Shown: in pieces, positions 8,393-63,128 of the stretch | Position numbering within the stretch: position 1 is the first letter of the stretch | Layout of the letters: each line of letters starts with the position of its first letter | NCBI GenBank assembly: GCA_002748835.1 | Contig: PDTL01000013.1 | Span: 26,576-90,575, forward strand | Direction of reading: 5' to 3' | From: Deltaproteobacteria bacterium | Lineage (GTDB): Bacteria > Desulfobacterota > Desulfobacteria > Desulfobacterales > GCA-2748835 | DNA: 64,000 nucleotides | The notes under the pieces: model-generated | The model's database searches: none | The model's input: only the letters and a program-made list of their open reading frames with translations | What the model was told of the DNA's origin: nothing | Made by a program: the position numbers and the translations under genes

Positions 8393-8785
8393 ATGGAATT
8401 TACCCTGGATTTTAACAAACAGCAGATGGAATCAATCGAGAACGTCCTGTCTGAGGAACTGATAGACCTTGGTGTACAGAGCGTTGTTTTGATTGATATG
8501 GCCGGAAACGTCGTCGTCAATATTGACAATGGCCAGTCCAATCATGATGTCTATTCTCTGGCAGCCCTTTCTGCGGCAAATTTCGGGGCTGTAAACGCGA
8601 TCGCAAACTTGATCGGAGAACAGGAATTTTCTCTGCTGTTTCACAAAGGAGAAAAGGGTAGCATCCATTTCAGTAAAGTGACCGAAGACCTCATTCTCCT
8701 GTCTATTTTCGGTAAGGATGTTTCGCTCGGTTTTCTGAGGCTTAAAGTCGGTGAAGCCATTCAACGGATTCAGGCGTTGATCTAA
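8393..8785 (+). CDS. Roadblock/LC7 (MglB-like) protein
   Basis: 130 aa with a Roadblock pattern: GVQSVVLIDMAGNVVVNID ... SLAALSAANFGAVNAIANLIG ... ILLSIFGKDVSLGFLRLKV. A GAGGTAAGG RBS precedes it and it lies immediately upstream of an MglA-type GTPase. Confidence 0.75.
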   Translation: MEFTLDFNKQQMESIENVLSEELIDLGVQSVVLIDMAGNVVVNIDNGQSNHDVYSLAALSAANFGAVNAIANLIGEQEFSLLFHKGEKGSIHFSKVTEDLILLSIFGKDVSLGFLRLKVGEAIQRIQALI

Positions 8786-8852
8786 AGTTGATTACTGTTC
8801 GCCCATGGTATCGTGGGCGGCATTTGGACGATAGCCGCTAGGGGGATCTGCT

Positions 8853-9470
8853 TTGGCGTTAATCAATCCGAAAAAGAAAGAAGTGCAGGTTAAGATCGTG
8901 TACTACGGACCTGGAAGAGGCGGGAAAACGACGAACCTGGAATATATCAATAAAAAATTTAAAAGCCGGATCAAGAGCGAAATGGTCACGGTAAAGACCT
9001 ATAATGACCGGACGCTTTTTTTTGATTTTCTGCCTTTCGATATCGGTGTTATCAAAGGATATACCATCAAGATTCAGTTTTACACAGTGCCGGGCCAGGT
9101 GAAGTATAATGCCACGCGCCGCCTGGTCTTGCGGGGGGTGGACGGGATTGTCTTTGTGGCGGACTCCATGGCACTCAGGCGTGAAATGAACATACGGTCG
9201 TTGCAGAACCTGGCGGAAAACCTGAAATCCTTCAATAAGGATATTTCCAAAATTCCCCTGGTGCTTCAATATAATAAGCGTGATCTTGGAAAAGAGGGAA
9301 TTCCCCTTTTGTCTGTGACGCAGATGGAAGCAGATATGAATGCCAAACTGCGTGTGCCGGCGTTCACTGCAAGCGCTGTAACCGGTGACAATGTTGCGGC
9401 TACCATGAAAAAAATTATTTCCTTGACAGTGATGTCATTGAAAAAACAACTTGATCTGGGGGGCCATTAA
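8853..9470 (+). CDS. mglA: MglA-family Ras-like small GTPase
   Basis: KIVYYGPGRGGKTTNLEYI (P-loop), DRTLFFDFLP (MglA-type switch I with intrinsic Arg), YTVPGQVKYNATRRLVLRGVDGIVFVADS (switch II Gln) and NKRD (G4). TTG start with GGGGGA upstream. The N-terminus aligns with the Myxococcus MglA layout as I remember it. Confidence 0.85.
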   Translation: MALINPKKKEVQVKIVYYGPGRGGKTTNLEYINKKFKSRIKSEMVTVKTYNDRTLFFDFLPFDIGVIKGYTIKIQFYTVPGQVKYNATRRLVLRGVDGIVFVADSMALRREMNIRSLQNLAENLKSFNKDISKIPLVLQYNKRDLGKEGIPLLSVTQMEADMNAKLRVPAFTASAVTGDNVAATMKKIISLTVMSLKKQLDLGGH

Positions 9471-22988: not shown

Positions 22989-23306
22989 CTATCCAGGCAG
23001 TGGCAGTTCCACGCCGGTCTTCATAATCTCATTGGCCAGGGGATTTGAAGTTTGAAAATCCGATGCCCTGAAAGGATGAGGTTCAATTCTAGTGTCAAAC
23101 CGTCTTCTGAGTTTCATCAGCTTAACCTGCATATCAAATGTATCATCAAGTTCATTGAAAATGATGGCCAGATCAATGTCACTGTCTTCATTTGCAGTTC
23201 CTTTGGCAACGGAACCAAATATATACCCTTTTTTAACATTGACATTGTTTTGTCTTACAAAATCAAAATATTCCCTGGCTATATTAGCAGCTTTGCTTTT
23301 ATCCAT
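22989..23306 (-). CDS. Minimal nucleotidyltransferase (MNT-type antitoxin-like)
   Basis: 105 aa with the GS...D.D signature of the NTP_transf_2 fold: GYIFGSVAKGTANEDSDIDLAIIF. Confidence 0.8.
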   Translation of the reverse strand: MDKSKAANIAREYFDFVRQNNVNVKKGYIFGSVAKGTANEDSDIDLAIIFNELDDTFDMQVKLMKLRRRFDTRIEPHPFRASDFQTSNPLANEIMKTGVELPLPG

Positions 23307-23681
23307 TTCCTGAAGTCCTCAATATGTTGAATCCACGCTTCTGTGTATGCCGTGGAACATTTTTTATAAAATTCTCTTTTGTAATCATCATAACGCCCCC
23401 TGATGTTGAAAGCGGATATGTATCCAGAATATCTTTTTGTTCATCATCAAGGTGCAAATTTCCCTTTTCAGACAAGCGGACAAGATCGTGAATAAATGGC
23501 GGGGTATTTTCTTTTTGTTTGACATACCAGGCTTTCAATAATTTTTCTAAAACAATGTGTCCGATAAAAAGCGCCCATGTATTGTCCCCTTTTTGGAACA
23601 AGTGGTACATGGCTTTAAAGTCGTCGTCTGAAGTATATCAATCCAGTATTTGATCTGTTCCTTTATATCCATAACGATCAT
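23279..23681 (-). pseudogene. HEPN-domain gene interrupted by two +/-1 frameshifts (cognate of the MNT gene)
   Basis: Three minus-strand frames join into one HEPN-like protein. Frame A (from ATG 23681/23672) reads MDIKEQIKYWID. Frame B reads TSDDDFKAMYHLFQKGDNTWALFIGHIVLEKLLKAWYVKQKENTPPFIHDLVRLSEKGNLHLDDEQKDILDT. Frame C reads ISAFNIRGRYDDYKREFYKKCSTAYTEAWIQHIEDFRKWIKAKLLI, with stop at 23279. The shifts lie near 23625-23640 and 23413-23425. The track shows only the middle piece (23299..23610). Confidence 0.6.
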
Positions 23682-34380: not shown

Positions 34381-34419
34381 AGGCGGCAGCCCATACCCGG
34401 CTGCCGCCTTTGCGTTTTT
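34381..34419 (+). terminator. Rho-independent terminator ending the ACAD/kinase/SDR operon
   Basis: 11-bp stem AGGCGGCAGCC / GGCTGCCGCCT with loop CATACCC, followed by TTGCGTTTTT. Confidence 0.75.
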
Positions 34420-34945: not shown

Positions 34946-35119
34946 CCGCGGTTGTTTAACGGGCTGTGCGGTGCCGTATTGTACCGGTTCAGCGGTCCCC
35001 AGCACTGACACGTAGGGGGTGGACCTGCGGTCAGTAATGACATGTGGTTTTGCTTGAACCGCATCTCTTCTCATCTCTTTATAGTCGACATGAAAAACAG
35101 TGCCGTAAAGGATCATGCG

Positions 35120-35917
35120 ATGACAGGTAAACAGTGCTCGACTTGCGGTTATGTGCGTGACGGTATGGACAACTTGCCGGATTGGAAATGCCCAAGATGC
35201 GATACACTGTATGAACGGCCGCCGGTGCGGTCAGATCGGGGCAGGCGGTCTGAACTAGATTTTACCGACATTCCGATGGATGGCGGCTACCGACGCCGGG
35301 ATGAGAAACGGCGAAATCCCCTGGGCCGGATTTTTTTTATTTTGGTGATGGGCATCGGTGTGATCGGGGGGAGCCTGTACCTGTTTGCAGACAGGGCACG
35401 GTATGTGAATGAAGGGGAGGCCGCTCTGTTTGTGTCACAAGCCTGTGGTGAACCCTGCGATGAACTGGCCGACTTCCTGGTGAAACGGGAGGTGCCGTTG
35501 CGAGTCTATACTGTGGATACCGATCCGGACGCCCGGAGTTTGTTTGATACCTTGAAAGGGGAGACGGTTCCCTTCCTTGTGATGGGGAGATTCCGGATCA
35601 CGGGGTTTGATCTGGACCGTGTTGACCATGCGATTTCCGAAACATTCCAGCCCATGATTGTGGGGGAAAACGGGGCGGTCGACGTGGTGGTATTTCTGAG
35701 CGCAGACTGCCCGGGTTGCCGGAAGATGGAAGCCTTTTTGAAAAAACAGGGTATCGATTATACCGGGTACTGGATTGACGAAGAACCGGCCCATCGGAAA
35801 AAATTTGACGAATACGGATTTAAAGCGGTCCCGGCGGTGATCATTGGCGGTAAACCGGTGGTGGGGTACAATCCACGCGCTCTCAAGAAAATGCTCAGGA
35901 AAGCCGGTCTGATGTGA
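35120..35917 (+). CDS. Zinc-ribbon / TM / tandem glutaredoxin-like membrane protein
   Basis: CSTCGYV ... WKCPRCDTLY (Cys4 ribbon) and TM FFILVMGIGVIGGSLYLF. Two thioredoxin-fold units follow: CGEPC ... TVPFLVMGRFRITGFD, and CPGCRKMEAFLKKQGIDYTGYWID ... AVPAVIIGGKPVVGYNP. The start is placed at ATG 35120. Confidence 0.7.
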   Translation: MTGKQCSTCGYVRDGMDNLPDWKCPRCDTLYERPPVRSDRGRRSELDFTDIPMDGGYRRRDEKRRNPLGRIFFILVMGIGVIGGSLYLFADRARYVNEGEAALFVSQACGEPCDELADFLVKREVPLRVYTVDTDPDARSLFDTLKGETVPFLVMGRFRITGFDLDRVDHAISETFQPMIVGENGAVDVVVFLSADCPGCRKMEAFLKKQGIDYTGYWIDEEPAHRKKFDEYGFKAVPAVIIGGKPVVGYNPRALKKMLRKAGLM

Positions 35918-36131
35918 TTTCCATCATCCCGGAATCTGCCGTGCCAGGTGGTCTGGGAGGATTTTATGCCGCGTTACGGGAGCTGTGTTTCGGTGCGGAT
36001 GCTGTTTCAAAAATGACAGGTGACGATCCTGTTGACTGTGAACAGGCAACGCCGTATAACACTAAAGAATCCTTTTTTTCGCGAACGCAGGGACATTGAC
36101 CCAGGCAACTATTTTTGAAAGGAGTCATCTC

Positions 36132-36392
36132 ATGGCTGAACTGACCGTTTTTCACAGCGGAAATCCCCGTTGAGTTTCCTGCAAAAAGGCTATAGGTGTA
36201 GCCAAGGAAATGGAAACGATGTTCGGAGAAAAAATACGTCTGAACATTTTCACGACAGATTCTGAAGCCGCGCGGAGCTACAATTTCAGAAGCTCGACAA
36301 ACGTCTTGTTTGACGGTGAACTGATTCCACTAGATATCTCATTGGACAAACAAAAAATGACGGATTTTCTTTCGGAAAAGCTGTCAGCATAA
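36132..36392 (+). CDS. Thioredoxin-fold small redox protein with in-frame UGA at codon 14 (candidate selenoprotein, UxxC)
   Basis: ATG 36132 is preceded by AAGGAG. The reading is MAELTVFHSGNPR-[TGA 36171..36173]-VSCKKAIGVAKEMETMFGEKIRLNIFTTDSEAARSYNFRSSTNVLFDGELIPLDI... The TGA is in frame with track ORF 36210..36392. The U-V-S-C sits exactly where the CxxC follows strand 1 in small thioredoxin-like proteins. A SECIS-like hairpin follows. Confidence 0.6.
36174..36211 (+). promoter_or_regulatory. SECIS-like stem-loop immediately 3' of the UGA
   Basis: Lower stem (G)TTTCCT 36174-36180 pairs with AGGAAA(T) 36205-36211. Upper stem GGCTA 36188-36192 pairs with TAGCC 36199-36203. The apical loop TAGGTG has its G residues 22-25 nt after the UGA. 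Confidence 0.5.
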
Positions 36393-36411: not shown

Positions 36412-37848
36412 ATGTTTAAACAACGATGTCCAGGTGTGGCCTGCCTCTTGACGATTCTGGTGTTCCTGTGGATCCCGGTGCCGCTGCTGGCTGAAGGGGT
36501 ATCTGAACTGATTCGTGATGTTGCCGTGACCACGACTGTCTCTGAAAAAGACACCCAGACCACCATCAATGTCACCCTGAATCCGGAACAGATTTTTGCC
36601 ATGGATGATCTGGCTGAGGCCTTTGCAGAAGATGCAGACGGCGAAATCTATGAATTTACATCTGCGGATTTTATCAGAGATATGTTCAGCACACGCCTTT
36701 TCAGGGTACTGCCGTTTCAGCTTCCCGGAACGGGGATCCGTATTGTCCTGACCGATACCGACGGCAACACGCATCTGTTTCACACGCAGATAAAAACCCC
36801 CAAACGGCTTGAAGCGCCCAACGCGGTTCCCTTTGCCGGTGTCAGTTATGACGGAACCTGGGAAGGCAGTGGGGATCATTACGATGTCTCGTTCACCGTT
36901 GAAAACAATAAACTGACCCTTTTCGAGATCACCTTCGGGGTAGACTGCGGAACCGGATACTGGTACCGGCATACCTGCAGAGACTGGAATCCGCGATCAG
37001 TGGCTGACGGTGATTTTTCTTTCTGGACGTGTAATGGTTCGACGCATTTTGAAGGCACCTTTGCCAACGCTCATGAACTGAGCGGAACCCTTGAGTACAA
37101 CGGCAATTTGGGCTGTGTTTACAATGGAACCTTTGCGGCCATCAACACCATCCATCCGCCTCCTGCAGAACCGGACCCCGGCCCGGGAGATCCGGTGGAT
37201 CCGAATATGAAAACCGTCTACATCCCCCACATCACCGGCGGTTATGCGGAGTGGACAGATTACCTTCAGGTTGACAACTTCGGCATTGCCAATGCGCCCC
37301 TTACGCTCACCCTGTACGCCGCCGATGGAACCTCCCTGTACACCGGCAACCATACGGTTCCCCGTTTGGGCAAAAAGATCCTCACCTTAAAGAAGTTTGC
37401 CGGCGCGGCCACTGCAACATCCGGCGTGATTCGATACACGGAACCCAACCTGAAATTTCGTCTGACCCAGGTGATTCTGGCCGGCGGGATCGCGGAATTC
37501 GAACTCACGGATGAGCGGTCCACCGCTCTGGTCTTCATGTACACGGATTCGCTTCCGCTGTTTAACTGCCAGGCAAAAGGACTGGCCCTCACCAACTTTG
37601 GTGCCAATGCCATCAACGTTACCCTGTCAGCCATCGGCGGCGGTGCGACCTTGGCAACGAAAACTGTGACCGTGCAGCCCAACGCCCACCTGGTGGGGGT
37701 TCACGCTGCGTGGTTTCCTGGGGTTGACATCAATTCGGTGAAGTCCATCCGGGCCACGGCACCGTCTAAGTCCATGGCCGGCATTTCCATTTCAGGCAAC
37801 GCCGGGAATACCAAACTGCTGTTTACGCCGGGAATCTCCATGGACTAA
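36412..37848 (+). CDS. Secreted hypothetical protein (478 aa)
   Basis: Signal peptide MFKQRCPGVACLLTILVFLWIPVPLLAEG. The protein is beta-rich and Thr/Gly/Asn-rich, with a Pro-rich hinge (HPPPAEPDPGPGDPVDP). No family was recognised. Confidence 0.7.
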   Translation: MFKQRCPGVACLLTILVFLWIPVPLLAEGVSELIRDVAVTTTVSEKDTQTTINVTLNPEQIFAMDDLAEAFAEDADGEIYEFTSADFIRDMFSTRLFRVLPFQLPGTGIRIVLTDTDGNTHLFHTQIKTPKRLEAPNAVPFAGVSYDGTWEGSGDHYDVSFTVENNKLTLFEITFGVDCGTGYWYRHTCRDWNPRSVADGDFSFWTCNGSTHFEGTFANAHELSGTLEYNGNLGCVYNGTFAAINTIHPPPAEPDPGPGDPVDPNMKTVYIPHITGGYAEWTDYLQVDNFGIANAPLTLTLYAADGTSLYTGNHTVPRLGKKILTLKKFAGAATATSGVIRYTEPNLKFRLTQVILAGGIAEFELTDERSTALVFMYTDSLPLFNCQAKGLALTNFGANAINVTLSAIGGGATLATKTVTVQPNAHLVGVHAAWFPGVDINSVKSIRATAPSKSMAGISISGNAGNTKLLFTPGISMD

Positions 37849-37854
37849 GTCGGG

Positions 37855-38769
37855 GTGATGCGATCACACGTGATTCAGGCAAATCTCCTGCTCACCCTGA
37901 CGGCGGCGATCTGGGGGTTTTCCTTTGTGGCCCAGCGGGTGGGAATGGACCATGTGGGGCCGTTTACGTTTAACGGTGTCCGCTTCTGGCTGGGGGGGCT
38001 GTCACTCCTGCCATTGATCTGGCTTCGCGGGGGCCGCTATCGCTATACCGATGAAACGTCGCAGACCGGCAGCTGGATGCTGACATACCGGCTTCCCCTG
38101 GGCGGTCTGGCGGCGGGTATCGTACTGTTTTCCGGCGCCACGTTTCAGCAGGTGGGGATTCAGTACACCACCGCCGGAAAGGCCGGGTTCATTACAGGGC
38201 TCTATGTGGTGATTGTTCCGTTCCTGGGTCTGTTTTTCGGGCAGCGGGCCGGTATGGCCACCGTTGCCGGCGCCATCCTGGCCGCAATCGGACTCTATCT
38301 GCTGAGCATCAAGGGCGGGTTTACCATGGCGTTCGGAGATCTGCTGGTGCTCATCAGTGCGTTTTTTTTTGCCATTCACATGCTCCTGATCGGCTATCTG
38401 TCTCCGCAGGTGGATCCGCTTAAACTTTCCTGCCTGCAGTTTCTCTGTTGCGGCACCATCAGTCTGGGGACGGCCGTTGCCATTGAAACCGTCACGCTGA
38501 CCGGTATCCGCATGGCCGCCATACCGATTGTGTTCGGTGGTGTGTTTTCTGTGGGGGTGGCGTATACGCTTCAGACGGTGGCCCAGCAGCATGCGCATCC
38601 GGCCCATGCAGCGGTGATCCTGAGTCTGGAATCCGCCTTTGCCGCACTGGGCGGTTGGCTGTTTCTGGGGGAAATCCTCGGCGGCCGCGGGTGGGTCGGC
38701 TGCGGATTCATGCTCGCCGGGATGATGATTTCCCAGATTCCTGAATCCGGATCCGGTGATACTGGCTGA
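37855..38769 (+). CDS. DMT-superfamily (EamA-like) transporter
   Basis: 304 aa with about 10 hydrophobic helices in two repeats. It has a typical EamA N-terminus (LLLTLTAAIWGFSFVAQRVG) and C-terminus (GGWLFLGEILGGRGWVGCGFMLAGMMI). Confidence 0.8.
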   Translation: MMRSHVIQANLLLTLTAAIWGFSFVAQRVGMDHVGPFTFNGVRFWLGGLSLLPLIWLRGGRYRYTDETSQTGSWMLTYRLPLGGLAAGIVLFSGATFQQVGIQYTTAGKAGFITGLYVVIVPFLGLFFGQRAGMATVAGAILAAIGLYLLSIKGGFTMAFGDLLVLISAFFFAIHMLLIGYLSPQVDPLKLSCLQFLCCGTISLGTAVAIETVTLTGIRMAAIPIVFGGVFSVGVAYTLQTVAQQHAHPAHAAVILSLESAFAALGGWLFLGEILGGRGWVGCGFMLAGMMISQIPESGSGDTG

Positions 38770-46685: not shown

Positions 46686-49600
46686 ATGTCAAATACGCGT
46701 GTGAATTTGAGTCGGAGGGCTAGGGGTGTTCAGTCTGCGGTAATGATGGTTTTCATGGCATGGGTGCTCGCTGCGGCGCCGGCTGCACTCGCGGATGTGT
46801 CGATTACGGCCACAAACAGTGCTGCCACCAGTCCCTGCGCTGTGGAGACCTATACGGTGAGCGTCACCAATCCTGCGGATGACGATATGACGGAGATGGT
46901 TATCACGGTTGAGGTTCCCGATAACACGTTTGCCTTTGTCGCGGGTTCCGCAACGATCACTACCCCGCAAAACGGGAATCTGGCAGGAAGTGATGCCAAT
47001 CCGGCGATTTCAGGAAACCAGCTTGTGTGGAATCTGGATGATCCTGCCCTGTTTAACGGGAATGTGGCGGTTGCCAAAAATGAAACCCTTACCCTGACCT
47101 TTGACGTCAGCTACAGTTGCACGTCAACCGGCGGTGCGGTCCTCGTGACGCTGGGCGCAGAGCGTCCGCGCGGACAAGCCATGAGCGAAACCAATACCGT
47201 CAATGTGGATGTCTATCCGGGTGCGGTGACCATTAAAAATTCCCCTGAAATTCAGGATGTCACCCTCGAGTCGCTTCCGGACAACGAGGAACCCACCTGG
47301 CAGGTAACCATCGAAAATACCGGTCTGGGAACTATTTACAATATCGTGGTTCGCGACGTTTTTGGGTCTGGGTTAGCGTATATTGATGGCTCTGCGCAGA
47401 TCGGTTCAACCCCGCTGACCCGGTCTGGTGATGACTGGGATCTGTCTCAATTCTCGGCAGACCCGGACGGTAACGGCACCGGCCTTGCGGACCTGGACGG
47501 GGACGGTGAATATGACGACCTTCCACAGGGCGAAACAATTACGATCACTGATGTGCGGGCAACTATAGTCGGCTGCACAGATCTGACCAGCTCTGCGGAT
47601 ATCCGGTACGGCTGCGACGATACAGCTTCAGGGGTCTGTTATGATTCGGCCACTGCCGGAGAAACCGCGTCAGCCAGTGTGGCGGCGCAAGTGGTGGATC
47701 CGGACATATCGATCGCCTTTGACGCGGCCGGGAAACTGGATAATATCAGTTTCTGTGACGGGGCTGATGATGTTACGCTGGCGATTACCAACGAACCTGA
47801 TGGCGGTCTGGCCCGTTATGTTTCCTATAAGGTGGACAGTTTTCCTGCAGGATGGACGGTCACCGACATAAAACCGGCAGGCGTTACCTGGAACAGCACG
47901 GAAGGCCAGTTTGAAAACATACCGGATATAGAAGGCGGCGAGACCGAAACCATTACTTTTGACCTGATCTGGGAAGGCCCTTCCGGTGATCCCTGTAACG
48001 CAGCCGCTGCCAGTTCCGCTCTGTTGATGACAATTCAGTACACCAATGTCTGCGGAACAGCGTTTACGCCGCCCACACAAAACGACACCCTGTCCATGGA
48101 ATCTGGCCTGGGGCGCCTGACCCTGGAGGCCGCTGCAGACATAGGCACGGACCGGGTGAATGTGGGTCAAACAGGAATTTCCATTGATCTGACAGCGACG
48201 GTGGGGAATATCACCGGCCCCAATGCCGGATTCAGTGGCAACACCAATATCACCTACACCCTGCCGCCTGGCTGGGCGGTAACAAATGCTGCCGGGGGCA
48301 CGGTTTCCGGGAATATCAACACCGGTTTGGTCATTACCTGGCCCCATACCTTCGACAGCGCGAATTCCCTGTTTGCCGAGACCATCACCGTGAATGCAAC
48401 CGAAGATCCCTGTGACGCGGGCAGTTTGGTGAACATGGAACTTGATGTCGATGCCATGAATCCCCTAGATTGCAAGGGGTGCACGTATACCCTGGAAGAG
48501 ACGGTGACAGATTCCGTGTTTGTGAATCTGGATTCTGCAACGAATGATCCGCTGGAAGATTCAAGTAAAACCATTACCTATGACAACCCTTTGAATTCGG
48601 CTGCGGGCGAAGCCTGCCGGCAGGCCATTTACACGGTGACCTATAATTTTTCGGCAAATGCGCCGGATACGTGGGCGAATATTGTTCTGACAGAAGAACT
48701 GATTCTTGATCAGACATTTGCAGAACTTGTCAGTGTGACCTATAACAGTGCAGACTATACGTCGTCTGTCGCCACATCCACTTCGGGTACGTCTGTCGAA
48801 TTTGATCTTTCCGGTCTTGAGGGCAGCGCACCGGCCCCCAGTGCCGGTCATGTGCTGGCGGTTCAATTCAAGACAGACAGTGTCAGCAACAGCGTGGGGG
48901 CCGGCGTCCAGTTTTCCCACCTGACGCTTCCGGGTGTTCCCTCTGACTGCAGTTCAGACGATGATTACGAAGAAGGCGTGCCGGTCAGTTTTGGCCGTCA
49001 GACCATGGACATTGCCCTTTCTGGTCCGGATCTGGTTGGACGCTGTGATGTTAAAACCTATCGGATCACGCTGACCAAAAACGATGACTATTACGCCTAT
49101 GATCCGGTGGTGACCCTGAATCTGGATCCGGATGGGGACGGCGAAAGAAACTATGGTTATCTGCCAAACTCGGCCAATCTGGACGGATTTACGGATGAAG
49201 GCGGAAGCCCGGTAACCAACTTTGAACCCACGGTTTCAGGCAATACCCTGGTGTGGGATTTTTCAATTCAGGGGGGGACCGGTGTTGATTATGAGTCAGT
49301 GGACTATATCGAAGTCGATTTGCGGTTGGGCTGCACCGCAGCGGCTGCGGATGGTCTGGAGGCAGACGTTGCTTACAATACCTGGTGTGATAATGATGTC
49401 AAGCCGCCAGTAGAAAGCGATTCTGCCACCTATGCCCCGGATGCCTCATACATCATCGGGCCTGCGTTGACGGTTTATCAGACGCCGGAGAAGTATTATG
49501 CCGAGGCTGGCACGGCTGCATGGGATCTGTATATCACCAATACCGGCAGCGGTGTTGCCTACAACGTGGTGTTGCAGGATGAACTCGGAGGCGATCTGGC

Positions 49601-52600
49601 CTATGCGTCATCCACCTGTAACGGGACGAATCTGGCTGTGGAAACTTCCGGGCAGACCGTGACATGGCGGTTCCAGCTGACCGCAGATCCGGACGGGCCA
49701 GGCGGCCTTGATGACCTTGACGGTGATGGATTTTATGATGACCTGGCACCGGGAAAATCCGCCAAGGTGTCCGCCGTCTTTTCCATTGTCGAGAACGGGT
49801 GCACGGAGATGACCAGCACGATCACCGGGCACAGCAGTTGTGATGTGACGGCGGCAAACCCGCAGACCGCCACATGGAACGGCATAGAATATTGTGACGA
49901 CTCAACGCCGGACACGGCCGAGGCCTTTGTCCGGAGCACGCAGGTGGTGACCGCCAATCAGTTTGCCGGCCCCATGCCCCTGTGCGGATCTCAAACCGCA
50001 TCCTTTATTCTCAAGAATACAGGGCTGGCAACGATCTACGATGTGGATGTCAAGCAGGCCCTCCCTGCCGGCATCAGCTTCCAGAACAGTTCAGCGCTTT
50101 ACGATCTTGATCTTGATGGTGACGGAACGTATGAAACGCAGAACCAACCCCTCGTCGATCCGCCGGAAGGAATCGGAACTGCGGCTGATCCGTACATCTG
50201 GGATGAAGGCGAGATTTCGGCGCTGGCCGCGTTGGCACCCAAGGCGTCCGTTAAAATCCATTTTACGGTCGAATCCACCTGTGGCGCCAGTGGCACCAGT
50301 CTTAATTTTGCGAGCAGTGCTGACTGGGAAACCGCCTGCGGAAGCGGGATTTCATCGACCGCGAAAATCGTCCGGATGGAACTGGCGGACATGGATGTCG
50401 GCGTGACGACGGAAGTCAGAAATGTCACAGCGGGTACGCCATTCACCTCAAATGAGTTCGGCGCAGACCCTGGCGACATGGTGGAGTATCGCCTTACCCT
50501 GACCAACCAGAGCGACGGAACACTCACCGCCGAGAATGTGCGTCTTGCGTGCACCCTGCCTGAGAACGCCATTACAGGGACAGTGACTTCAGCCAACCCG
50601 ACGCCGACAAGTACGAGTCCGCTGTATTGGGATGTGGGGGATCTGACGTCAGGCGCAACCACTCAGTTTACCTTTCAGGTACAAGTCGATGCCTGCGTAG
50701 ATGATGATCTTGAATCCGTGGTTACGTTTGGCTGTAATACCCCCCAATGCGAAGCCGGCAGCAATACAGAGGCCATGACGCTGCATGCAACGCCGGATGT
50801 CTCTACGGATGGTTCGATCACCGTCACGGGCGCGAATTTTACCACGGCCGGCGGGGATGTGACCATTGTGATAGACAATGCCGGCAGTACGGCGTCCAAT
50901 CTGAATCTGAGTTATACTCTGCCGGATGGGTATGTGTATGATCCATCAAACGGGGGCGCCACCATCACCAGCTCCCTGGGAGTGAGTTATGCCGGAGACG
51001 ATGAACCTGCGGATCCGAATGCGGACCCGCTTGTCTTTTCCGGGCTGAATAGTCATACCCTGTCTAACGCCGAAACCCTGACCATCCAGTTCCACGTCAA
51101 GGGCGACGGTAGTGGCTGGGATACAACCGCAGCGAACGACGCAACCGATCCGCTGGATATTGCAACCATTCCGGATACCGTTAACCATTCGGCCGTGTTT
51201 TCGTTTGATAATTCCTGCGGTGATTCGGATAGCGCAACAGCCAACGAAACCATCAATCCGTTGAATCCGGATATTGATATTACCCTGACCGAGGTAAAAC
51301 AGGTTGTGGGCGAAGGTGGCACCGCCACCTGGGTCCTGACCCTGACCAACAAGGGGGATGCCCCGGCATCGAATATTGTGCTGACCAATCTTATCGAATC
51401 CGGACTGACCAACGCGACCGTCACATCGGGTCAGGCCCCGGATTCAGGAACCACCGCCGCCAACGGCACGTGGACAATTCCCGGCCCCATTCCTCCCGGC
51501 GGCACCTGGACGGTAACTATCACTGCGGAGGTGGATACGCCGCCAAGCGGCCCCCTGACCCATACTGCCACAGTGGAAGGGTTTGCAAAGGATGCCGCAG
51601 GCACCACCATCGGCACCTACACCCATGATGAAGCCAAGGCCTATGTGGTCTGTTTCGATATGGACAAAACGGTGGATAAATCAACCGCCAATGTGGGGGA
51701 ACTGCTCACCTATGATCTGACCGCGACGTTCAGTAATACCGAAACATATCAGGATGTGGTGCTCAAAGATGTCCTGCCCGCCCATATGACCTATGTGGGT
51801 GTGACACCCCAGACAGATCATACGGTGGCAGACGGCGGTGTTACGGTCAGCGGCCAGACACTGACATGGTCGCCGGCGTCGTTTACCGGCAGACAGGTGT
51901 TTCATATGAAGGTGACCGCCCGGATTGACAATGATCCGGCAAATACCGGTGCGCCGACGCAGACCACGCTGACAAACACATTTGAAGCCGACTTTGATGT
52001 GGATTTCAACGGAGACATCGTTGAAATAAATCCGGATAATCCGGATGACAAGGCGCGGGTTACTGCGGACACCCTTGTGACAGAACCCAAACTCACCCTG
52101 ACCAAAACCATGACACCGTCTCTGGCGGATGCCGGGGATACCATCACCCTTACCCTGACTGTTGCCAACACCGGTGACGGCACGGCGTATAACGTCGATG
52201 TTTCGGATTACCTGAACGATACGGATGGGGACGGCAATGTATCGTCGGATCCGGATGATAAGGTCATCTTTGTTTTAAACTCTGCCACAGCGGTGACAAC
52301 ACCGCCGGGCTGGACGTTCGCTGACTCCGGCAGTGCGGCTGAGAACTATGCCGTGACCTATACCAGTAACGGAGGTAGCGAAGGCTATATACAGGCAGGC
52401 CAGACCCGCACGTTTGTGTTTACAGCAACCTTGGAATCATCCATTGTTGCCGGTACCACCTATACAAATACGGGGCGCACGGATGGGCATTCGCTCTCAG
52501 ATGGGGATGCTGAACATGACAACCCGGATTTTGACCGGATTCCCACAGACGACGGAACCGCTGATATTACCGTTGCCGCGCCGGGTATCCAGACCAAACT

Positions 52601-55600
52601 CCTGACGAAAACATCAGAAGATCACACGGACCCGGGCGACAGCAATCTTGCTGCAAATCCGCCCCTGGCCATTGGTGAAGTGGTCTCTGTGAAGCTCTAT
52701 TTTTCCTTTCCCGAAGGGTATACCGAAAATGTACTGCTCCGGGATCGCCTGCACAACCTGCTCACCGTTCCATGGGGTGAGTACGTTCCCGGATCCGCCC
52801 GGTTGTCAAAAAATTCGGATGACCTTACCTGCGCTAACGACCCGGGAGGGATCAATAGCGCGGCCACAGGCACCCCGGTGAATGTCAGCGTTAACACAAC
52901 TGCCGATGATACCTATGCGTATATCGATTTAAACCTGGGAACGGTCACCAATGCCAATACCGCGACGGGTGTTACGGAAAGCTTTACCTTCACCTTTGAT
53001 GTGGTGGTCCGCAATGTGGATGTGACCAATGCCGGCGCACAGCTGGTGGATGAAGGACTGATCCGTTACACGCCGGACGGCGGCGCCGATATCTGGGTGC
53101 CAACGGCTCCGGTAACCGCCCATGTGGCAGAGCCCGTCTTGTTCGTTGCCCTGGATGCGTCTCCAGGTGCGGCGGATGGTGGGGAGACGGTCACGTTTAC
53201 CCTCCGCCTGGAGAACCGCGCCAGCGGTGTGAATGGAACCGACGCCTTTAATCTTGAATTTTCCGATCTGCTGCCGGCGGACTTTACCAATCCCGATAAT
53301 TTTACTGTGGTAAGCAACGGCGGCGGCCGGACGCTCACCCCGTGCACAGGGGGAAATTATTTTAACGGAAACCAGCTCTGCGGGACCATTGATCAGCTGG
53401 GACCCGGAGAATATATTGACGTAACTTTTACGGCCGACCTTATTGATGAGGCGGCATATGGGAAAATCATTACCACCGAGGCCACCCTCACCGGGACGTC
53501 TTTGCCGGGTGAACAGGGAACAGGTGACGCGACACCGGGTGCTTCCGGTGCTGAAAATGGTGAGCGTACCGGAAGCGGCGTCAATGCCAATGACCTGTCT
53601 GTATCCGATCCAGCGGTTGTGTCTGTGTCAAAACCTTACATCAGCAAAAAACTGGTGCCGGAAAACCTCTGGTTCGCGATTGGTGAAACCGCATCCTATG
53701 TGGTGACGGTGCCGGTGCCGAAAGGGTCGGCAACCTCTTTTGTGGTCACTGACACACTGTCAGCCGGGCTGTCCTTTGTGCCCGGCACCCTGAGTGTCGT
53801 CCTGCCAGGAGGCATGACGGCATCAACGACGCCTCTGACAGAAGGTAACGCGGCGTTCTTTACCGCTTCAGGAAGTGACTTGACCTTTGACTTTGGTACG
53901 CTCACGGCGTCAGCTGCCGATGATATCGTGATCACCTATGATGTGAATGTGGATAATGTGATCGAAAATCAGGATGGCGATTTTCTGGATAATGCCGTCA
54001 AACTCACCTACACCGATCCGTCAGGCGGCAGTTTTACTGTGGGGCCGACGGTGAGTGTGCCGCGGCTGCGGGTGGGTGAACCAAACCTTGAAGTGGAAAA
54101 GACAATTACCGCAGGTGCCGTGGGATCAAATGGCGGTGACACCGTGTCGTGGCAGGTGGTGGTGCAAAATACGGGACACACCACTGCATACCAGATGAAC
54201 TGGTCCGATGTGCTGCCGGCCGGTCTCTATCAGATTTCGGGACAGGCGCTTTCCGTGATCGGAGACGTGTTTTTAAATGACACCAGCACGTCGCTGAATA
54301 CCTCGCATCTGGCGGTATCCACAACCACCAACCTAGAGGACACGATTTCCCTGCCCCTGTTCCAGATGGCGGCAGGCAGTGAGGTGACCATCACCTTTGA
54401 CGCGGTGATCATGAATTCGGTGACGGGTGGTGAAACCCTGACCAATGCGACCCGGGTGAATTATACCAGTCAGCCGGATGGCGGCCGCGATAATTCTACG
54501 AATCCAGGCAATGTGGACGATGATGACGATACGGACCTGAACAACTATGAAGAAGGCGACGCTGCATCGTTTACGACCGGTCAGAACATTGCCATTGACA
54601 AGATGGTGCTGGGAGACCGGGATATCCCCGTGGGCGGTCTGGCGGTGTTCCGGATCCGGGTCAGCCTGGACCAGGGAACCACAAACGCACTAAAAGTGAT
54701 AGATAAGCTGCCGGACGGTCTGGCCTATGTAAGTAATACCATCACGCCGGGTACCATGGGCATGGTGATCCAGAATACCGGATATACGACGCCAACGGTC
54801 AGCGGGCAGACCGTGACATTTGATTTCGGAGATGTCACCAATCCCGCTGATGGATCTGCGGACAACGATTATCTGGATATTGATCTGTCTGTCAGGGTGA
54901 AGAATATTCCCACAAACCAGCAGGACGTGGAGCTGAAGAACGGTGATGATTCACAATCCTCCGAAACCTGGCTGGAATATGGTCCCACCGCCGACACGGT
55001 CTATGTGGATACGGACCCCGGTACGCCGGGTCATCAGGGTGTCAGTGTCGCTGTGGTGGAACCGAACCTGGTCATCACCAAAACTGCTGCGCCAGTGACG
55101 CCTGCTGTGGGCGCCACCGTGACCTTTACCATACGGGTGGAACACACGGACAGTGCGGCAGACGCCTTTGACGTGACCGTAACTGATACGCTTCCGGCGG
55201 GTCTGACCTATGTCATGGGTTCCACGACGCCGCCTGCAACGGCAGATGAAACGGATCCTACCCGTCCGGTCTTTTCGTTGAATACCATTACCCAGACAGA
55301 AGGATTCAAGGAATTTTCATTTCAGGTGACCGTGGATCCAGGTGCGGCGTCCGGACAAACCCTGACCAATACGGCCAGAGTTGACTGGAGCAGCATCACC
55401 GGTGCAGACGGCACCACTGACAGCGGCCGGAACGGTGACAACTGTCCGGGGCCGACCGGATTGAATGATTATTGCGATACCGATACCGCAGATGTCACCC
55501 CCACTATGTCTGCGATAATCGATGCGACGAAAACCGTTGCCATTGCCGTTGACGCCGACGCCGACGGTGAAGTGGATCCGGGGGACACCCTCGCGTACAC

Positions 55601-58600
55601 GATTACGCTGGTTAATGACGGCCCGGCAGTGAACGGGGTGGTGTTCACAGATACGATTCCAGAACATACCGCCTATGATCCGGGTTCGCTCACCACAACC
55701 CGGGGCACGGCAGATGATTCCGGAAACCCGGATCTGTCCGTTTCTGTGGGCGCAATGGGAACGGGTGAAACGGTGACCATCACCTTCCGGGTTATTGTGG
55801 CTAACGGCACGCCGGAAGGCACCGTCATCCGCAATCAGGGCAGTGTGGACAGTGACGATACGGTACCCGAACCCACGGACGCAGACGGGGATGACACCAA
55901 CGGTGATCAGCCCACGGATATTCCGGTGGGCGGCACGCCCGCCGGCGCAGATCTGTATGCGTGGAAAATCGTGGAGTTGACAACCGATGCAGACGCATCG
56001 GGTACGATCACCCCAGGCGACACCCTGCGCTACTGGATTCAGCTGCAGAACACCGGAGATACGGAACTGAGTGGTGTGAGCCTCTCTGACACCATTCCGG
56101 CAGGGCTGACCTATGTGGCAGGCTCTGAAGAGACCAGCGATCCGTCAAGCACGCTGACCATTACGGGCGATGCGGTTTCGCTGACAAACATGACCCTTCC
56201 TGTGGGCGCATCCGGCGTTATCTGGTTTGATGTGACCGTGGACGGTCCGCCCTTGTATAACACGGATGCGGATCCCGACACGGAAACCTTCGTGAACCAG
56301 GGAACCGCAAACAGCGATCAAACCGATCCGGTCCTGACAGACGCCAACGGCGATCCGTCAGACGGGACCCAGCCCACAACCTTCACGGCTGTGGATGGCT
56401 CGGCAGCCGGATCTCCGGAAATCGACCTCCAGAAACGCTGGAGTCTTTCCAGTGATGTAAACGGAAATGGGGTCGTCAATCCCGGGGACAGCATTGCCTA
56501 TACACTGACCCTCACCAATACAGGGTCTGCGGATGCACAGAACGTGCGTCTTTCCGATCCTGTTCCGGTAAACACCACCATGGTCCCGGGATCAGTGACC
56601 ACCAGCTGCGGTGTGGTAATCGGTGAAAATCCGGTGTCCGTGAATGTGGGGACCCTGGCGCCAGGCAAGGTGGTGAATATCAGCTTCCGGGTGACCGTGA
56701 ACAGCGGCACACCGGGTGGTACCCTGATCGCCAACCAGGCCACAGCCACGGGCGATAACTTTGGCGATACGAAGAGTGACGACAATGGAGATGAAACCGA
56801 CGGCCGCAACCCGACCCTGACGCCGGTGGAAGATCCTGGTACGACCGGGGTGACCTCACCATCCGCTCTGACCAAATTGCTCCATGCCACGTCGGAATCC
56901 GGCAGCCTTGCTGCGAATGTACTCATCGGCGAGATCGTGACCTATCGGGTCTCCGTGACCCTGGCCAAAGGCACCACCCGTCACGCGACCCTGTCAGACA
57001 CCCTGCCGGCAGGCCTGTCCTATCGTGCCGGTACCGCCCGGCTGGCTGCCGTATATGATACGGCCCTGAACCTGTCCGAGAATCCGGGGAACATTAATGC
57101 GGCAGCATCCGGGGCCTTTGTCAACCTGACAGACGGCAGTGACATCACCCGTTCCGGGCAGACCCTGTCTGTTTTTCTCGGGGATGTCCTCAACTCGGAC
57201 AATGATACCAACGCGGAAACCCTGACCCTGGAATTCCAGGCCCTGGTCACCAATGTGAACGGTAATCAGGCCGGCGAAAGCCTGACGGACACGGCCAATC
57301 TCAGTTACCGGGATGCCTTGAATCAGGACCGCAACCTGATCCCTCAAACCCACACGGTCACCGTGACCGAGCCAATGATGGCGGTTTCAAAAACAGCGGC
57401 CCAGGCGGCATTGATGCCAAGCGGTGGAGATATCACCTATACCCTGGTCATTACAAACACCGCTGGTGCCCATTCGGCGACCGGTTATGATGTGATGATC
57501 GAAGATACCCTGGACCCGGCGTTTACCGCCCTGACTGTGGACAGCATGACGCCGGCAGGTGGTGTCTCGGGTGTGACGGATACGACAGCCGGAACCACCC
57601 TGACGGTCTCGGCGGCGGTGTTCCCGGTGGGAGGCACTCTGACCATCGTTTACACCGGTACGATTCCCGGTCCGCTGACCACAGGCGACACCTTTGCCAA
57701 TACGGCCCGCCTGAACTGGACCTCCCTGCCTGGAGAGCAGGGAACCGGCGATGTAACACCGGGTGCAACCGGTGCGGCAGATGGCGAGCGAAACGGCACG
57801 GGCGGCGTAAACGACTATGCGGATCAGGATGCGGTGACCGTGGCCGTGGACACCCTTGTATTTGAAAAATCAGTCAACCCGACCGGTACGCTTCCAGTGG
57901 GCTCGACGGTGACCTATACCCTTGTGGTCACCTTGCCGGCGTGGAACGTGCCGATTAATGATTCACTGATTACCGATGTGCTGGATCCGGGACTGGACTA
58001 TGTTCCCGGCACATTGCTCGTGACCCCGTCCGGTGCGGCTGGTGAGGTGACCTATTCCGCAGATCCGGACTTTACGGTCACAGAAGACAGTCCGGCAGCC
58101 GGTGACGAGACCCTGACCCTGAACCTGGGTGCGGTCACCAATACCGCCGCTGATATCCGGACCCTCACCCTCACCTATGCGGTGCGGGTGGCAAATAGCC
58201 TTGTCAACCAGTCCGGTCATGACCTGAGCAATGCGGCCACCTTTACTGGTCAGCCGGAAGGCGGATCGCTGGTAACCTTGACGGACGCTACCACGGTTAC
58301 GGTGGGGGAACCACTGTTGACCCTGACAAAGGAGATTACCAGTAACACCACAGACCTTGAGGCGGGAGACCGCATTGATTATCGTGTGACCACAGGAAAT
58401 ACCGGGGTCACAACAGCCTATGAAACTGTGCTCACCGATACCCTGCCCACCAGCCTGACCGATGTGCAGGTTGCAAATGTCACCGTAACCGGTGGCGGGG
58501 AAACACCCAGTGTCACCCCAGGTATGGGCGGCTGGACGACCAGCGCCTTTGATCTGCCGCCGGGCGGTCAGGTGGTGATCACCTTTTCAGCAGCACTGGC

Positions 58601-61600
58601 AAATACGGTTATGCCGGGTGAATCCCTTCAGAACGGGGTGAACGCGAGATATACCAGCCTGGACGGTGCAGATGCAAACGAGCGCGATGGCTCGGATCCC
58701 GATCCGGACCAGACCGATGACAGCGTGCTGAACAACTACGGTATTGATGCCCTGTCGCCTGTGGTGATTGTGGCAGACCCGGTGGCGCTGGATAAGCGGT
58801 TTTATCCGGATCCGTCCGTCACCACCTATACCATTGGTGAAACCGTCCGGTACCGGCTGACCGTGACCCTGGTCGAAGGCACCGTGGAAGACCTGGTGGT
58901 AACCGATATCCTGCCGGATGGCCTTCATTTTGTATCCGCCGTTGTGTCGGCCGGTCATACCAACCTGACGCATCACTATACGGCACCGGTGGCCGTAAGC
59001 GGCCAGGAACTCACCTTTGACTTCGGCACGGTGGTCAACCCGGCCAATGGGTCGGATTCAGATGACGTCCTGGTCATGGACATTGAAACCGTGGTGGAAA
59101 ATATCGCCGCTAACCAAGATGGTGTCCGGCTGGGCAACCATGCCGGAATGACCTTCACGGATGCGGACGGCCACCCGGTAACCCGGGACTATGACGCGGA
59201 TACGGGAACACCCGGTGTCCAGCCGCTGGAACTGGAACTGGTTGAACCGGTGCTGGTCATTGAAAAGACCCATAACCTTGAGTATCAGTCCCTTGGCGAT
59301 CAGGTCAGCGTGACCCTGCGAGTGGCCCATACGGCAGAGAGCAGGGCGCATGCGTACGACCTTGTGATCACGGACACCCTGCCCGCAGGGTTGCGGTTTG
59401 TCACCGGCTCTGCTTCTGTGCCCCCGGTGGTTTCAGGAACGCCTGCAACGGGCGAAACCCTGACATTCACCATTACTGACCTTTCCCTGGCCGCCCATGA
59501 GATGGTGATTACCTATCAGGTGAGGGTGAGCCCGGGTTCGGTGGTGGGGACACCACTGGTGAATTCTGCCCTGCTGACCTGGGGCAGTATTCCGGGTGCC
59601 ACAGGCGATCCCACCGGCGGCCGGACGGGCGGCGACTGCGGTGAAACCGCGCCGCTGAACGACTATTGCACGGTGGATGATGCCCAGGTGATACCGATCA
59701 CAACGCTTTTCATCGAGGCGGTAAAAACCGTGGAAGACGTGAACGGCGGTCGGGTGATGCCGGGAGATGAACTGCACTATACCGTGGTGCTGACCAATGT
59801 GCATCCCAGACAGGATGTGACGAAGGTGATGTATGTCGATCCGCTTCCTGTGATGGCCGACTATGTGGCAGGTTCGATGACGCTGGAAGGTGCGAGCCTG
59901 ACCGACGCGGCTGACGGGGATGCCGGAGACTACAATGTCTCGCTGAGTCATGGACTGACCATTGACGTGGGCATCATGGAAAGTGCACAGTCGGTGACCA
60001 TCCACTATCGTCTTCAGGTGCCGATGGACACGCCGGTCGGTGTGGTGATCCGCAACCAGGGGACGGTTGACAGTGCGGAAACGGTTCCAGAGCCCACGGA
60101 CGAAGATGATAACGACGCCAACGGCGACCAGCCCACGGAAGTCGTGGTGGGCGAAGACCCTGTATCGAATATTCGTGTGGAGAAACGGGTCGCCCTTTTA
60201 GACGATATTGTAGCGCCCACGGACGGTACCCTGAATGTGGGAGATACGGTTCAGTACACCATTCTCATTCGGAATACCGGAGACATGCCACTGACAAATG
60301 TGGCCTTTTCTGATGAGATGCCGGCCGGCGTCACCGTGACGGGTGTGTCCAACGCATCCTGGAGTGGCGGACAAACCGTCACAGCGGCGTTTGCCCAAAT
60401 TCCTGTGGGCGGGTCTGAAACAATTACTATCACGGCAACCTTGATCGCTGCCGGTCGCCTTTTGAATCAGGGAGTCGTGACAACGGATGAAACCGGTTCC
60501 CATGAAACGGACGGCAATTCGGATACGGAAGACGGGGACCAGCCCACGGTAATCAGGGTTGAAGAACCGTCCGTTGCCGGAACGCCGGAGATCCGTTTAG
60601 TCAAGACCGATGCCCTGGTAGAGGATCTGGATGAGACCGGATCCGTGACTGTCGGTGATACCCTGCGCTATACCCTGAGCGTCCGAAACACCGGTTCAGC
60701 TCCGGCAACAGCCGTACGCGTACGGGATGCGATTCCGGTCCATACCACGCTCGTGGCGGGATCCGTGTTTACCAGCCAGGGGGCGGTTGTCACCGAGGAT
60801 CCGATGGACGTGAACGTGGGAACCCTTGCACCGGGTGAGGAAGTGATCGTCACCCTGCGGGTGACCGTTGACGCGGGAACGCCTGCGGGTACCCGTGTGT
60901 CCAACCAGGCAGTGGCAAGCACCGCAGAGACGCCGGATATCCCGAGCGACGACCCGCATACGCCGGAAACGGATGACCCCACCGAAACACCGGTGGTGGG
61001 AATGCCGGAACTCCGGATCTGGAAAACAGCGAATAAGGCGGAAGTCGCTCCTGGAAAACGTCTGACCTATACCCTTCATTATGAAAACCTGGGCCCGAGT
61101 AACGCGTCCCGGGTGGTCATCACGGATGAGGTGCCCGGCGGTACCGAGTTCATTTCTTCGGACACCGGCGTGCTGGTGACTGATACCACCGTTCGATGGG
61201 AGCTGGGAACTTTGATCGCAGGATATAGCGGCGCTGTTTCCTTTACCGTACGGGTGGATTCCTCGGTGCCGGATGGCGCGGAAATCGTCAACAGTGCTTA
61301 CCAGATGACCACCTTTCAGACTGAGCCGGTTACCGGGGATCCGGTGACGGTTCCGGTGAATAAACCCAGCCCAATCCGGAAACGGCCGGACCTTTCCACC
61401 TCCGGTAAAACCGTGAGCGACATGAACGGGTGCCCGCTGGAACCGGGGGATACACTGCTGTATACCGTAACCCTGATCAATACAGGAAACGGGATGGCGC
61501 CGTCTGTCTGGTATACGGACCTGCCCGATGCGCTGTCCATTCTGGAGAATGGGTCGGTGACTACCACAAAAGGGAAGGTGAATCGCGGGAACTCACCGGG

Positions 61601-63128
61601 TGAACCGGATATCCGCATCAATGTGGGTAACTTGGCACCGGGAGAGACCTGTACCATTACCTACCGGGTAACCGTGGGCGAAAACGCGCCCGCAGGCAGC
61701 CTGCTGTCCAATCAGGGGATGATGGATCTCGGGGTTTGCTATCCCTCCTTTGTCACGGACAATCCCTTAACGATTGCCAAAGGGGATCCCACGTTCATTG
61801 GTCCGGTGGGCGGCAGCGACGGAGGCATGGCACCGGTTTCCTTTGAAAAACGCGTGATTGATCCGTTAGATAGCTATGCGCCGGGAGATTCGGTACAGCT
61901 GGAAGTACGGGTGACCCATCACGGTGCAGACACCACAGAGGGGATGGTGATTGTCGACGCCCTGCCGGAGTCCCTCATACTGGTAGAAGAGTCCTTGTCC
62001 GCTGTGAACGGCACCGCCCATGCCGGGCCACCGATCCGCTTTTTCGTGGAACCCCTGGCCGCTGGCGCATCAGCGATCCTGACCTATACGGTGATGATCA
62101 GCGAAAGCGTCGTTCTGAACACGGAGATTTTCACCCAGGCCCAGCTCTACTACGGCGGGACCGACTGCAACCGGGTGGAAAGCGACAACCCGGACACCAG
62201 TGCTGAACTAGACGCGGTGCGGATCTTTGTGGGTGAACGAACCCAGGGACCGGATGTGCGGGTGACAAAAACAATTCAGGACCTGGATGCCGGCCTGCTC
62301 TTGAATGGTGACAGGCTCCGGTATCGGATACAGGTCACCAATGCGGGTGACCAGCCGACATCCGTGCTTCACCTGACAGATCTGCTGGCGGAATACCTGG
62401 TACTCAATCCCGGCAGCATCGAAACCGCAGGTATCACCATAGACCCGGCAGATACGGTCATCACGGGTACCATTGCGCCACTGGCGCCGCAGGCCGATGC
62501 CTGGGTCGCGTTTACCTGCAGGCTCGACTTCGCACCGGGAACACCGGCCGGTACAGGAGTGGTAAACCAGGCTGAGGTAATGGATTCAGACGGCGTCCGG
62601 TTTGAATCGGATGATCCGTCCACAGCGGCAGATTTGGATCCCACTGTGCGGCTGCTTGATATGGCTGTGCCTGTGTTGGCGCCGCCCTATGGTACCCTGC
62701 GGGTCGTTTCCGAAAACGACTATCTGGTGTGGGAAATGACCTGGCGTCAACCGAATCCGGACTGGTCCATGATCACCCATGTACGGGCGGAATTGCCGGA
62801 AGGTGTGGATTGGGTGACAGACAGCCTGGAATTTGATGCAGGGGATGCCATGTATGATCCCGTAACCCTACGGATTCGCTGGGCCGTCAATCTGGCACCG
62901 GATGGTCAGCCAGCGACCCTGCGCTACCGTACGCGTCCCCGTGCGGGACTTACAGAGACCGCAACCCAGGCATCCGCCTGGTGGGACCAGAACATGAACG
63001 GGAAGGTGGATGCGGATGAACGGGCGCAATCGCCGGTACTCACCGATGACCCGATGACGGATACGCCACTGGATCCCACCCGCTGGACCGGATGCTGGGA
63101 TTGCAGTGGAGGGATGAAACCCTTCTGA
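46686..63128 (+). CDS. Giant (5,480 aa) secreted DUF11/conserved-repeat-domain surface protein (adhesin-like)
   Basis: Single 16,443-nt ORF with the signal peptide [20 protein letters not shown]. It has dozens of ~100-aa Ig-like modules with the DUF11 signature, e.g. [108 protein letters not shown] and [25 protein letters not shown]. The composition is Thr/Asp/Gly/Val-rich. All internal antisense or off-frame track ORFs are rejected. Confidence 0.9.
   Translation: [5480 protein letters not shown]

Follow-up and report, generated by a model that had tools for sequence, protein, structure and literature searches.

The interval 36132-36392 on the forward strand of the window (the whole 64,000-nucleotide stretch of DNA analysed here) encodes, with a probability that we place at about 0.92, a cytoplasmic, thioredoxin-fold member of the TsoX selenoprotein family, 86 residues long, with an in-frame UGA read as selenocysteine (Sec). 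The family is already known, being curated (NF045809 in NCBIfam, PF26315 in Pfam) and described in 2025, and the present gene is a real and ordinary member of it. Given this curation and publication, the present instance brings no new biology, and its main value lies in the correction of the annotation, in which an 86-residue selenoprotein with a recoded UGA replaces a short gene call. A candidate UxxC selenoprotein of thioredoxin fold had been proposed for this place in an initial annotation made from the sequence alone, and the proposal is supported by the match to NF045809, by a TGA found at the same column in 62 of 62 sequences, by a conserved hairpin and by the predicted fold.

The coding sequence comprises 86 codons plus the stop. 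It opens with an ATG (36132-36134), runs through 13 sense codons (MAELTVFHSGNPR) to a TGA at 36171-36173, which is taken as the Sec codon of residue 14, and continues in the same frame for 72 codons to a TAA at 36390-36392. Upon read-through, the N-terminus is MAELTVFHSGNPR-U-VSC-KKAIGVAKEM..., and the whole product can be abbreviated as MAELTVFHSGNPR-U-VSCKK...SEKLSA. The HSGNPxU motif is present as H8-S9-G10-N11-P12-R13-U14, where U14 corresponds to the in-frame TGA, and the redox motif UxxC as U14-V-S-C17; Cys17, the resolving cysteine of U-x-x-C, has the codon TGC (36180-36182) and is invariant in the family alignments. The ribosome-binding site read from the sequence, GAAAGGAG (36117-36124, forward strand), lies 7 nt 5' of the ATG at 36132, in agreement with the well-spaced Shine-Dalgarno sequence originally noted there, and a purine-rich block is also found at this place in the homologues (low entropy at codon positions -17 and -16).

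The mechanical list of open reading frames gives instead a shortened ORF of 60 aa (36210-36392, forward strand), and a public assembly calls a still shorter product of 57 aa (P0010). Both are devoid of strand 1, of the U-x-x-C motif and of half of helix 1. On re-reading the sequence, the positions initially assigned to the two ATG codons (36132 and 36210) and to the TGA between them (36171-36173) are all correct, and the AAGGAA upstream of the 60-aa ORF indeed touches its ATG with no spacer. The statement that gene callers miss such genes also holds for this one, as the available calls are products of 57-60 aa without the active site. The other UGA-interrupted frames that a sequence search of the window returned either had a junk-like composition or were plain upstream extensions.

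When queried with U replaced by C, the protein scored 136.5 bits on NCBIfam NF045809 ("HSGNPxU motif (seleno)protein TsoX"), for which the cutoff is 52; the E value is 2.6e-40, and the match covers profile positions 2-82 out of 82. In addition, PF26315, named TsoX, is recorded on the identical short product of the same organism, and a search among 5.8 billion proteins returned 105 relatives, all with a precomputed PF26315 assignment. Our local Pfam copy gave no match for the read-through protein; since the precomputed PF26315 annotation exists, this copy is probably older than the TsoX family. In PMC13188914, TsoX is presented with a UxxC motif and one Sec and is credited to Haft and Tolstoy 2025 (mSystems 10:e0141724), and Tso is expanded there as "three selenoprotein operon", meaning several adjacent, otherwise unrelated selenoprotein genes. 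The literature searched yielded no experimental work on a TsoX protein. The window gene resembles the family in HSGNPxU, in UxxC, in the single Sec, in the length of ~85 residues and in its Desulfobacterota-type host; however, the family owes its name to the adjoining tsoABC, and the window gene has no tsoA, tsoB, tsoC, tsoY or ArsR-type tsoR nearby. A further family of UxxC selenoproteins, likewise small, thioredoxin-like and from these lineages, gave a weak N-terminal match to the window protein (E 0.0054), but with 16.8 bits against a cutoff of 105 the protein is not a member of it.

For the comparison at the DNA level, 61 homologous loci were fetched from species-representative genomes, with hosts that are almost all Desulfobacterales, Syntrophales, Desulfobulbales and related MAGs and do not include the organism of the window; together with the window, this makes 62 sequences. 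All 61 loci align from query residue 1, 2 or 3 (58 of them from residue 1), and thus none starts at the equivalent of Met-27, the start of the shortened ORF. On translation, each of the 61 gives VFHSGNPx, a stop and then xxC, so the upstream segment, for which a check of in-frame conservation had been suggested, is kept before the stop in all of them. The stop at the Sec column is TGA in 62/62 sequences, the window included. Along the 13 codons from the ATG to the TGA, the per-codon entropy shows that positions 1 and 2 are nearly fixed and that position 3 varies (e.g., 0.24, 0.00 and 1.94 bits for the three positions of the Pro-12 codon); 5' of the ATG, variation affects every codon position with no periodicity, the purine-rich ribosome-binding site excepted. 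The preponderance of third-position variation between ATG and TGA is what a translated segment would show. The N-terminal peptide and the hairpin of the window gene match the family consensus exactly.

It had also been asked whether homologues carry Cys or Sec at this column. Besides the TGA of all 62 sequences, one true Cys form was recovered among the 77 relatives found in 1.84 billion cluster representatives. This protein (P0110, locus L064) reads HSGSPT-C-TSC, with the Cys encoded by TGT, and its score on the TsoX model is 110 bits; with the UGA forms it makes a classic Sec/Cys pair. A distant CxxC relative, P0173, is consistent with such a pair as well, and matches TsoX along with the TIGR00411 and TIGR00412 families. 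The Cys form of tsoX (L064, 4877-5137) lies next to genes for a PNPOx-like flavoprotein and an MFS transporter.

Regarding the machinery for Sec insertion, selA, selB and selD were not among the about 40 proteins scanned in the 64-kb window, and the window has no tRNA genes, hence no tRNA-Sec. From the intact gene, which matches the consensus, and from its hairpin, we infer that the organism probably decodes Sec.

Downstream of the UGA, a SECIS-type hairpin is located at 36188-36203 (forward strand), with the arms GGCUAU (36188-36193) and GUAGCC (36198-36203) enclosing the loop AGGU (36194-36197). The upper stem thus has 6 bp, and the loop begins 20 nt past the UGA. In the minimum free energy (MFE) fold of this sequence, and of this sequence only, the hairpin is further enclosed by a lower stem, GUUUCC (36174-36179) with GGAAAC (36212-36217), so that the two-tier structure spans 36174-36217, with an MFE of -18.6 kcal/mol and a z of -2.45 against shuffles. 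The bSECIS criteria, as given in PMC13188914, are a loop of 3-9 nt, an upper stem of 4-16 bp, a spacing of 16-37 nt and an MFE of at most -7.5 kcal/mol, along with a G in the first two loop positions. The tsoX hairpin lies within all of these limits, with its 6-bp stem, AGGU loop and 20-nt spacing and an MFE of -14.9 for the 60-nt segment. Nevertheless, the window contains 2631 TGA triplets, and 15% of them precede a hairpin that passes these loose bacterial SECIS criteria, with 3.5% preceding one at least as good as that of tsoX. As the hairpin alone is not beyond chance, the case for it rests on the comparison between species.

Over 60 distinct sequences, the upper helix GGCUAU-AGGY-GUAGCC is paired in 98.6% of cells; when the 3' partner is slid by 1-3 columns, 26-47% are paired for the whole structure. 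Two compensatory double changes were found (A-U for G-C in L019, C-G for U-A in L060), so that the covariation is slight and the support comes mainly from conservation. Part of this conservation is forced by the protein, because the hairpin encodes K-A-I-G-V-A. The synonymous sites within it are, however, frozen (Ala GCT in 60/62, Val GTA in 50/62, Ala GCC in 57/62), with a third-position entropy of 0.21-0.40 bits versus 1.6-1.9 at other invariant four-fold codons, which therefore indicates selection on the RNA itself. The third position that falls within the loop is free (1.53 bits), and in nearly all members the second position of the loop is G, followed by G or U. The Cys form (L064) retains the hairpin as GGCCAU-CGGC-GUGGCC via compensatory changes.

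The lower stem is paired in 40.8% of the family, with an alternative register paired in 63%, and was thus ruled out as a conserved part of the element. Consequently, the two-tier stem-loop described in the initial annotation does exist in this sequence, and its upper tier is a conserved hairpin at the distance expected for bacterial SECIS elements, but its lower tier is specific to the sequence in which it was seen. Elements of the bSECISearch type, with E. coli fdhF as prototype, share with tsoX the site in the coding region after the UGA, the 4-nt loop, the 6-bp stem and the GG/GU core; in contrast to the bacterial SECIS model, the lower stem of tsoX differs between species, and the binding of SelB is a prediction. 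Rfam gave no meaningful match, either for the whole window at gathering thresholds or for 36100-36300 at E values up to 10. This absence carries little weight, since no general bacterial SECIS model was found in Rfam.

The TGA might also be a genuine stop, in which case the 13-codon leader (MAELTVFHSGNPR) would end there and the downstream protein would be initiated separately by stop-start coupling. Such an arrangement is compatible with the codon that follows the TGA, which is ATG in 31 of the 62 members and GTG in 3 more, and with the databases, where most relatives are 71 aa long and begin at exactly that codon, as many gene callers annotate the homologues. In the window, however, this codon is GTT, which is no start, and the next in-frame start is Met27, whose product is without the Cys17 motif. 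The same applies beyond the window: 28 of the 62 members have GTA, GTT, GTC, ATA, ATC, ATT, CTG, GCT, GCC or AAT after the TGA, and because these 28, the window included, have a non-start codon there, the stop-start pair fails. Moreover, the structural model assigns the supposed leader peptide, with high confidence, to the thioredoxin sheet as its strand 1, and in the Cys form the frame is open throughout. We therefore consider two separate frames very unlikely.

A pseudogene, in which a nonsense mutation would have inactivated a thioredoxin-like CxxC gene, would be compatible with a single sequence carrying an in-frame stop and with the Sec machinery not seen in the window, but it is at odds with the occurrence of the same TGA in 61 species-level genomes as well as in the window (62/62), with the protein-level constraint on both sides of the TGA and with an N-terminal peptide and hairpin that equal the family consensus exactly; this origin is slightly less credible again than two frames. 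The explanation to which we give the least credence is that UGA has been reassigned in the lineage to a standard amino acid (Trp or Gly), so that the residue would not be Sec. It is true that some metagenome pipelines translate homologues with Trp here, and that the few full-length database entries show Trp at the Sec column (e.g., P0007, P0012 and P0022), but this is a pipeline reading TGA by an alternative genetic code. TGA is the ordinary stop of 10 of the 26 family-supported genes of the window, at places in keeping with full-length family profiles, and the standard genetic code therefore applies. In addition, a reassigned UGA would leave the conserved hairpin at SECIS distance unexplained, and relatives have Cys rather than Trp at the corresponding position. 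A selenoprotein with Sec at residue 14 is thus the reading that we follow below.

The best solved relative in a family-profile search of the PDB is 1nho (MTH895, 85 residues), with a marginal E of 0.015, and the alignment places U-x-x-C on C-P-Y-C, with Cys17 on the second Cys. As a structural model we used an AlphaFold prediction, built with a 90-sequence alignment, for P0022, a full-length homologue with 63% identity to the window protein and with Trp at the Sec column. The model has a mean pLDDT of 89.9 and a pTM of 0.76, and its strands (E) and helices (H) are E3-9, H16-35, E36-42, E57-61, E64-66 and H74-81; strand 1 thus consists of residues 3-9 (AELLVFH), the last three of which open the VFHSGxP motif. 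The top 50 Foldseek matches in the PDB all contain thioredoxin, be it free, mutant, in a complex or as a fusion tag, and the best 20 have TMq values of 0.62-0.74. The predicted TsoX fold is thus thioredoxin-like, with the Sec at the position of the first Cys of CxxC, at the start of helix 1, and it agrees with the beta-alpha-beta-alpha-beta-beta-alpha core of thioredoxin-fold oxidoreductases. The order of strand 1, U-x-x-C and helix 1 that had been proposed from the sequence is borne out by both the P0022 model and the 1nho alignment. The cis-proline that thioredoxins conserve before strand 3, where it faces the active site, is missing: the corresponding family segment, F-R-S-S-T-N-V-L-F, contains no proline and has an invariant T and N, and the Thr of S-T-N aligns with the Pro of S-I-P-T-V-L-F in thioredoxin 1gl8 (profile alignment, E 0.099). 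As an invariant Thr replaces the cis-proline, the chemistry of TsoX may differ from that of a generic disulfide reductase.

Beyond TsoX itself, the closest comparisons are small thioredoxin-like proteins of archaeal type, the MJ0307 family (TIGR00411) and the MTH895/ArsE family (TIGR00412; PDB 1nho). They are similar to TsoX in size, have a thioredoxin fold that likewise does not have the N-terminal extension of E. coli Trx, and carry their redox motif where helix 1 begins. In contrast to both, TsoX has Sec for the first Cys, a two-residue insertion that forms the HSGNP loop before the motif, and the invariant S-T-N in place of the cis-Pro. The scores of the window protein on the TIGR00411 and TIGR00412 models are far under the cutoffs.

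With respect to the genomic context, the upstream neighbour (35042-35917, forward strand) encodes a protein that begins with a zinc ribbon and has a single predicted membrane helix and a pair of glutaredoxin-like domains. Pfam Glutaredoxin matches it in two stretches (E 2.2e-16), and a match to the NCBIfam YruB-type glutaredoxin-like model stays under the cutoff of that model. The order along the product is a CxxC...CxxC zinc ribbon, a strongly basic segment, the hydrophobic helix, and the CGEPC and CPGC motifs. According to the positive-inside rule, its redox domains would face the periplasm, unlike the cytoplasmic TsoX. The downstream neighbour (36412-37848, forward strand) starts 20 nt past the tsoX stop and encodes a 478-aa protein with a hydrophobic N-terminus and with no family match in Pfam or NCBIfam; it is followed by a flanking gene for an EamA transporter (37855-38769). 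No homologue of the window flanking genes adjoins tsoX in any of the 61 loci. Thus, the neighbouring double-glutaredoxin protein to which the initial annotation had pointed does have two glutaredoxin-like stretches, but it is not a conserved partner (0/61 loci).

In the homologous loci, the most common neighbour of tsoX is an ArsR/SmtB-type regulator (17 of 61). A gene for TsoA, with the motif L-U-LAEC, lies directly upstream on the same strand in 14/61, and TsoC was seen beside tsoX in 3 of the 61. The TsoA, TsoC and TsoY proteins of these loci are above their NCBIfam cutoffs, and a start-truncated TsoB is just under its own (752.9 bits vs 805). In L018 (5482-6255) and 13 other loci, a few codons separate the TGA that ends tsoA from the start of tsoX; L018 and L032 have both genes in one frame, so that two UGA-containing genes follow each other directly. 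In the window, no LULAxC or NEPxGxxU motif occurs anywhere, and no Tso family was found among the about 40 proteins scanned. Since the Tso genes and the ArsR-type regulator are absent from the window, its tsoX stands alone, as tsoX does in most loci. A strong terminator was identified at 34381-34409, in a promoter/terminator scan that overall gave no more sites than shuffles, and the same scan gave no terminator-like site between tsoX and its neighbours. Judging from this layout, co-transcription of tsoX with the neighbouring genes is possible.

By the established bacterial Sec pathway, translation would begin at ATG 36132, and the ribosome would insert selenocysteine at UGA 36171 in place of terminating, because the mRNA hairpin at 36188-36203, with its AGGU loop 20 nt downstream, is proposed to recruit SelB carrying Sec-tRNA(Sec). 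In the protein, the Sec14 selenolate would attack an oxidised substrate, Cys17 would resolve the intermediate to an internal selenenylsulfide, and a flavoprotein of the thioredoxin-reductase type would re-reduce TsoX. Natural fusions bear on the last of these steps. In P0166, a TsoX domain (67.9 bits) is fused to a thioredoxin-disulfide reductase (TIGR01292, 369.6 bits vs a cutoff of 343), and the upstream DNA retains HSGDPN-TGA-KPC, which suggests that TsoX may go through a thioredoxin-like cycle and be re-reduced by a flavoprotein reductase. The metagenomic gene for this type of fusion at L063 (190-1424) has its own TGA (HSGDPN-U-KPC) ahead of a full thioredoxin-disulfide reductase, and gene callers start it past the TGA.

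As to the substrate, the partner of the TsoX domain in another fusion, P0154, is an arsenite-methyltransferase-type domain, and this, together with tsoA/B/C/Y and the ArsR-type neighbours elsewhere, points to sulfur or metalloid chemistry. One could go further and suppose that TsoX is a dedicated selenol-based redox partner for such chemistry rather than a general thioredoxin. Several observations would fit this idea: the cis-proline is lost while the HSGNP and STN loops are invariant; an arsenite-methyltransferase-type fusion exists and ArsR-type regulators adjoin the gene in many genomes; and Sec is near-obligate, with one Cys form among 77 cluster representatives. Even so, we hold this specialised role to be rather unlikely. 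In the window, the stand-alone copy may be co-transcribed with the membrane-anchored double-glutaredoxin protein, the secreted 478-aa protein and the EamA exporter, and if this were true, it could belong to an undescribed lineage-specific redox relay. For the study of TsoX in general, the frozen sites of the hairpin, the Cys form that keeps the hairpin, the fusion to thioredoxin reductase and the missing cis-proline may be useful.

Some other features were observed along the window. At 2384-3964 (reverse strand), a 526-aa metallo-beta-lactamase/beta-CASP ribonuclease is encoded, for which the best NCBIfam match is the type VII CRISPR Cas14 model (386.6 bits vs a cutoff of 800), followed by archaeal aCPSF1; no CRISPR repeat family was found in the window by Rfam at gathering score. 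For the 905 nt at 7488-8392, a crude gene map shows no standard ORF of at least 90 codons, and Rfam gave nothing at gathering score. They are followed (8393-9470, forward strand) by adjoining genes for an MglB-like GTPase-activating protein and a small Ras-like GTPase, a polarity pair of the MglA/MglB type. Two small overlapping genes at 22989-23610 (reverse strand) are probably a toxin-antitoxin pair of the MntA/HepT type, as one of them matches the MntA nucleotidyltransferase antitoxin (E 5.6e-12, 45.5 bits vs a cutoff of 60). Finally, a single ORF of 5480 codons occupies 46686-63128 (forward strand), and the DUF11-type repeats (TIGR01451) and isopeptide-forming fimbrial domains (TIGR04226) in its first 3000 residues suggest a giant surface adhesin.
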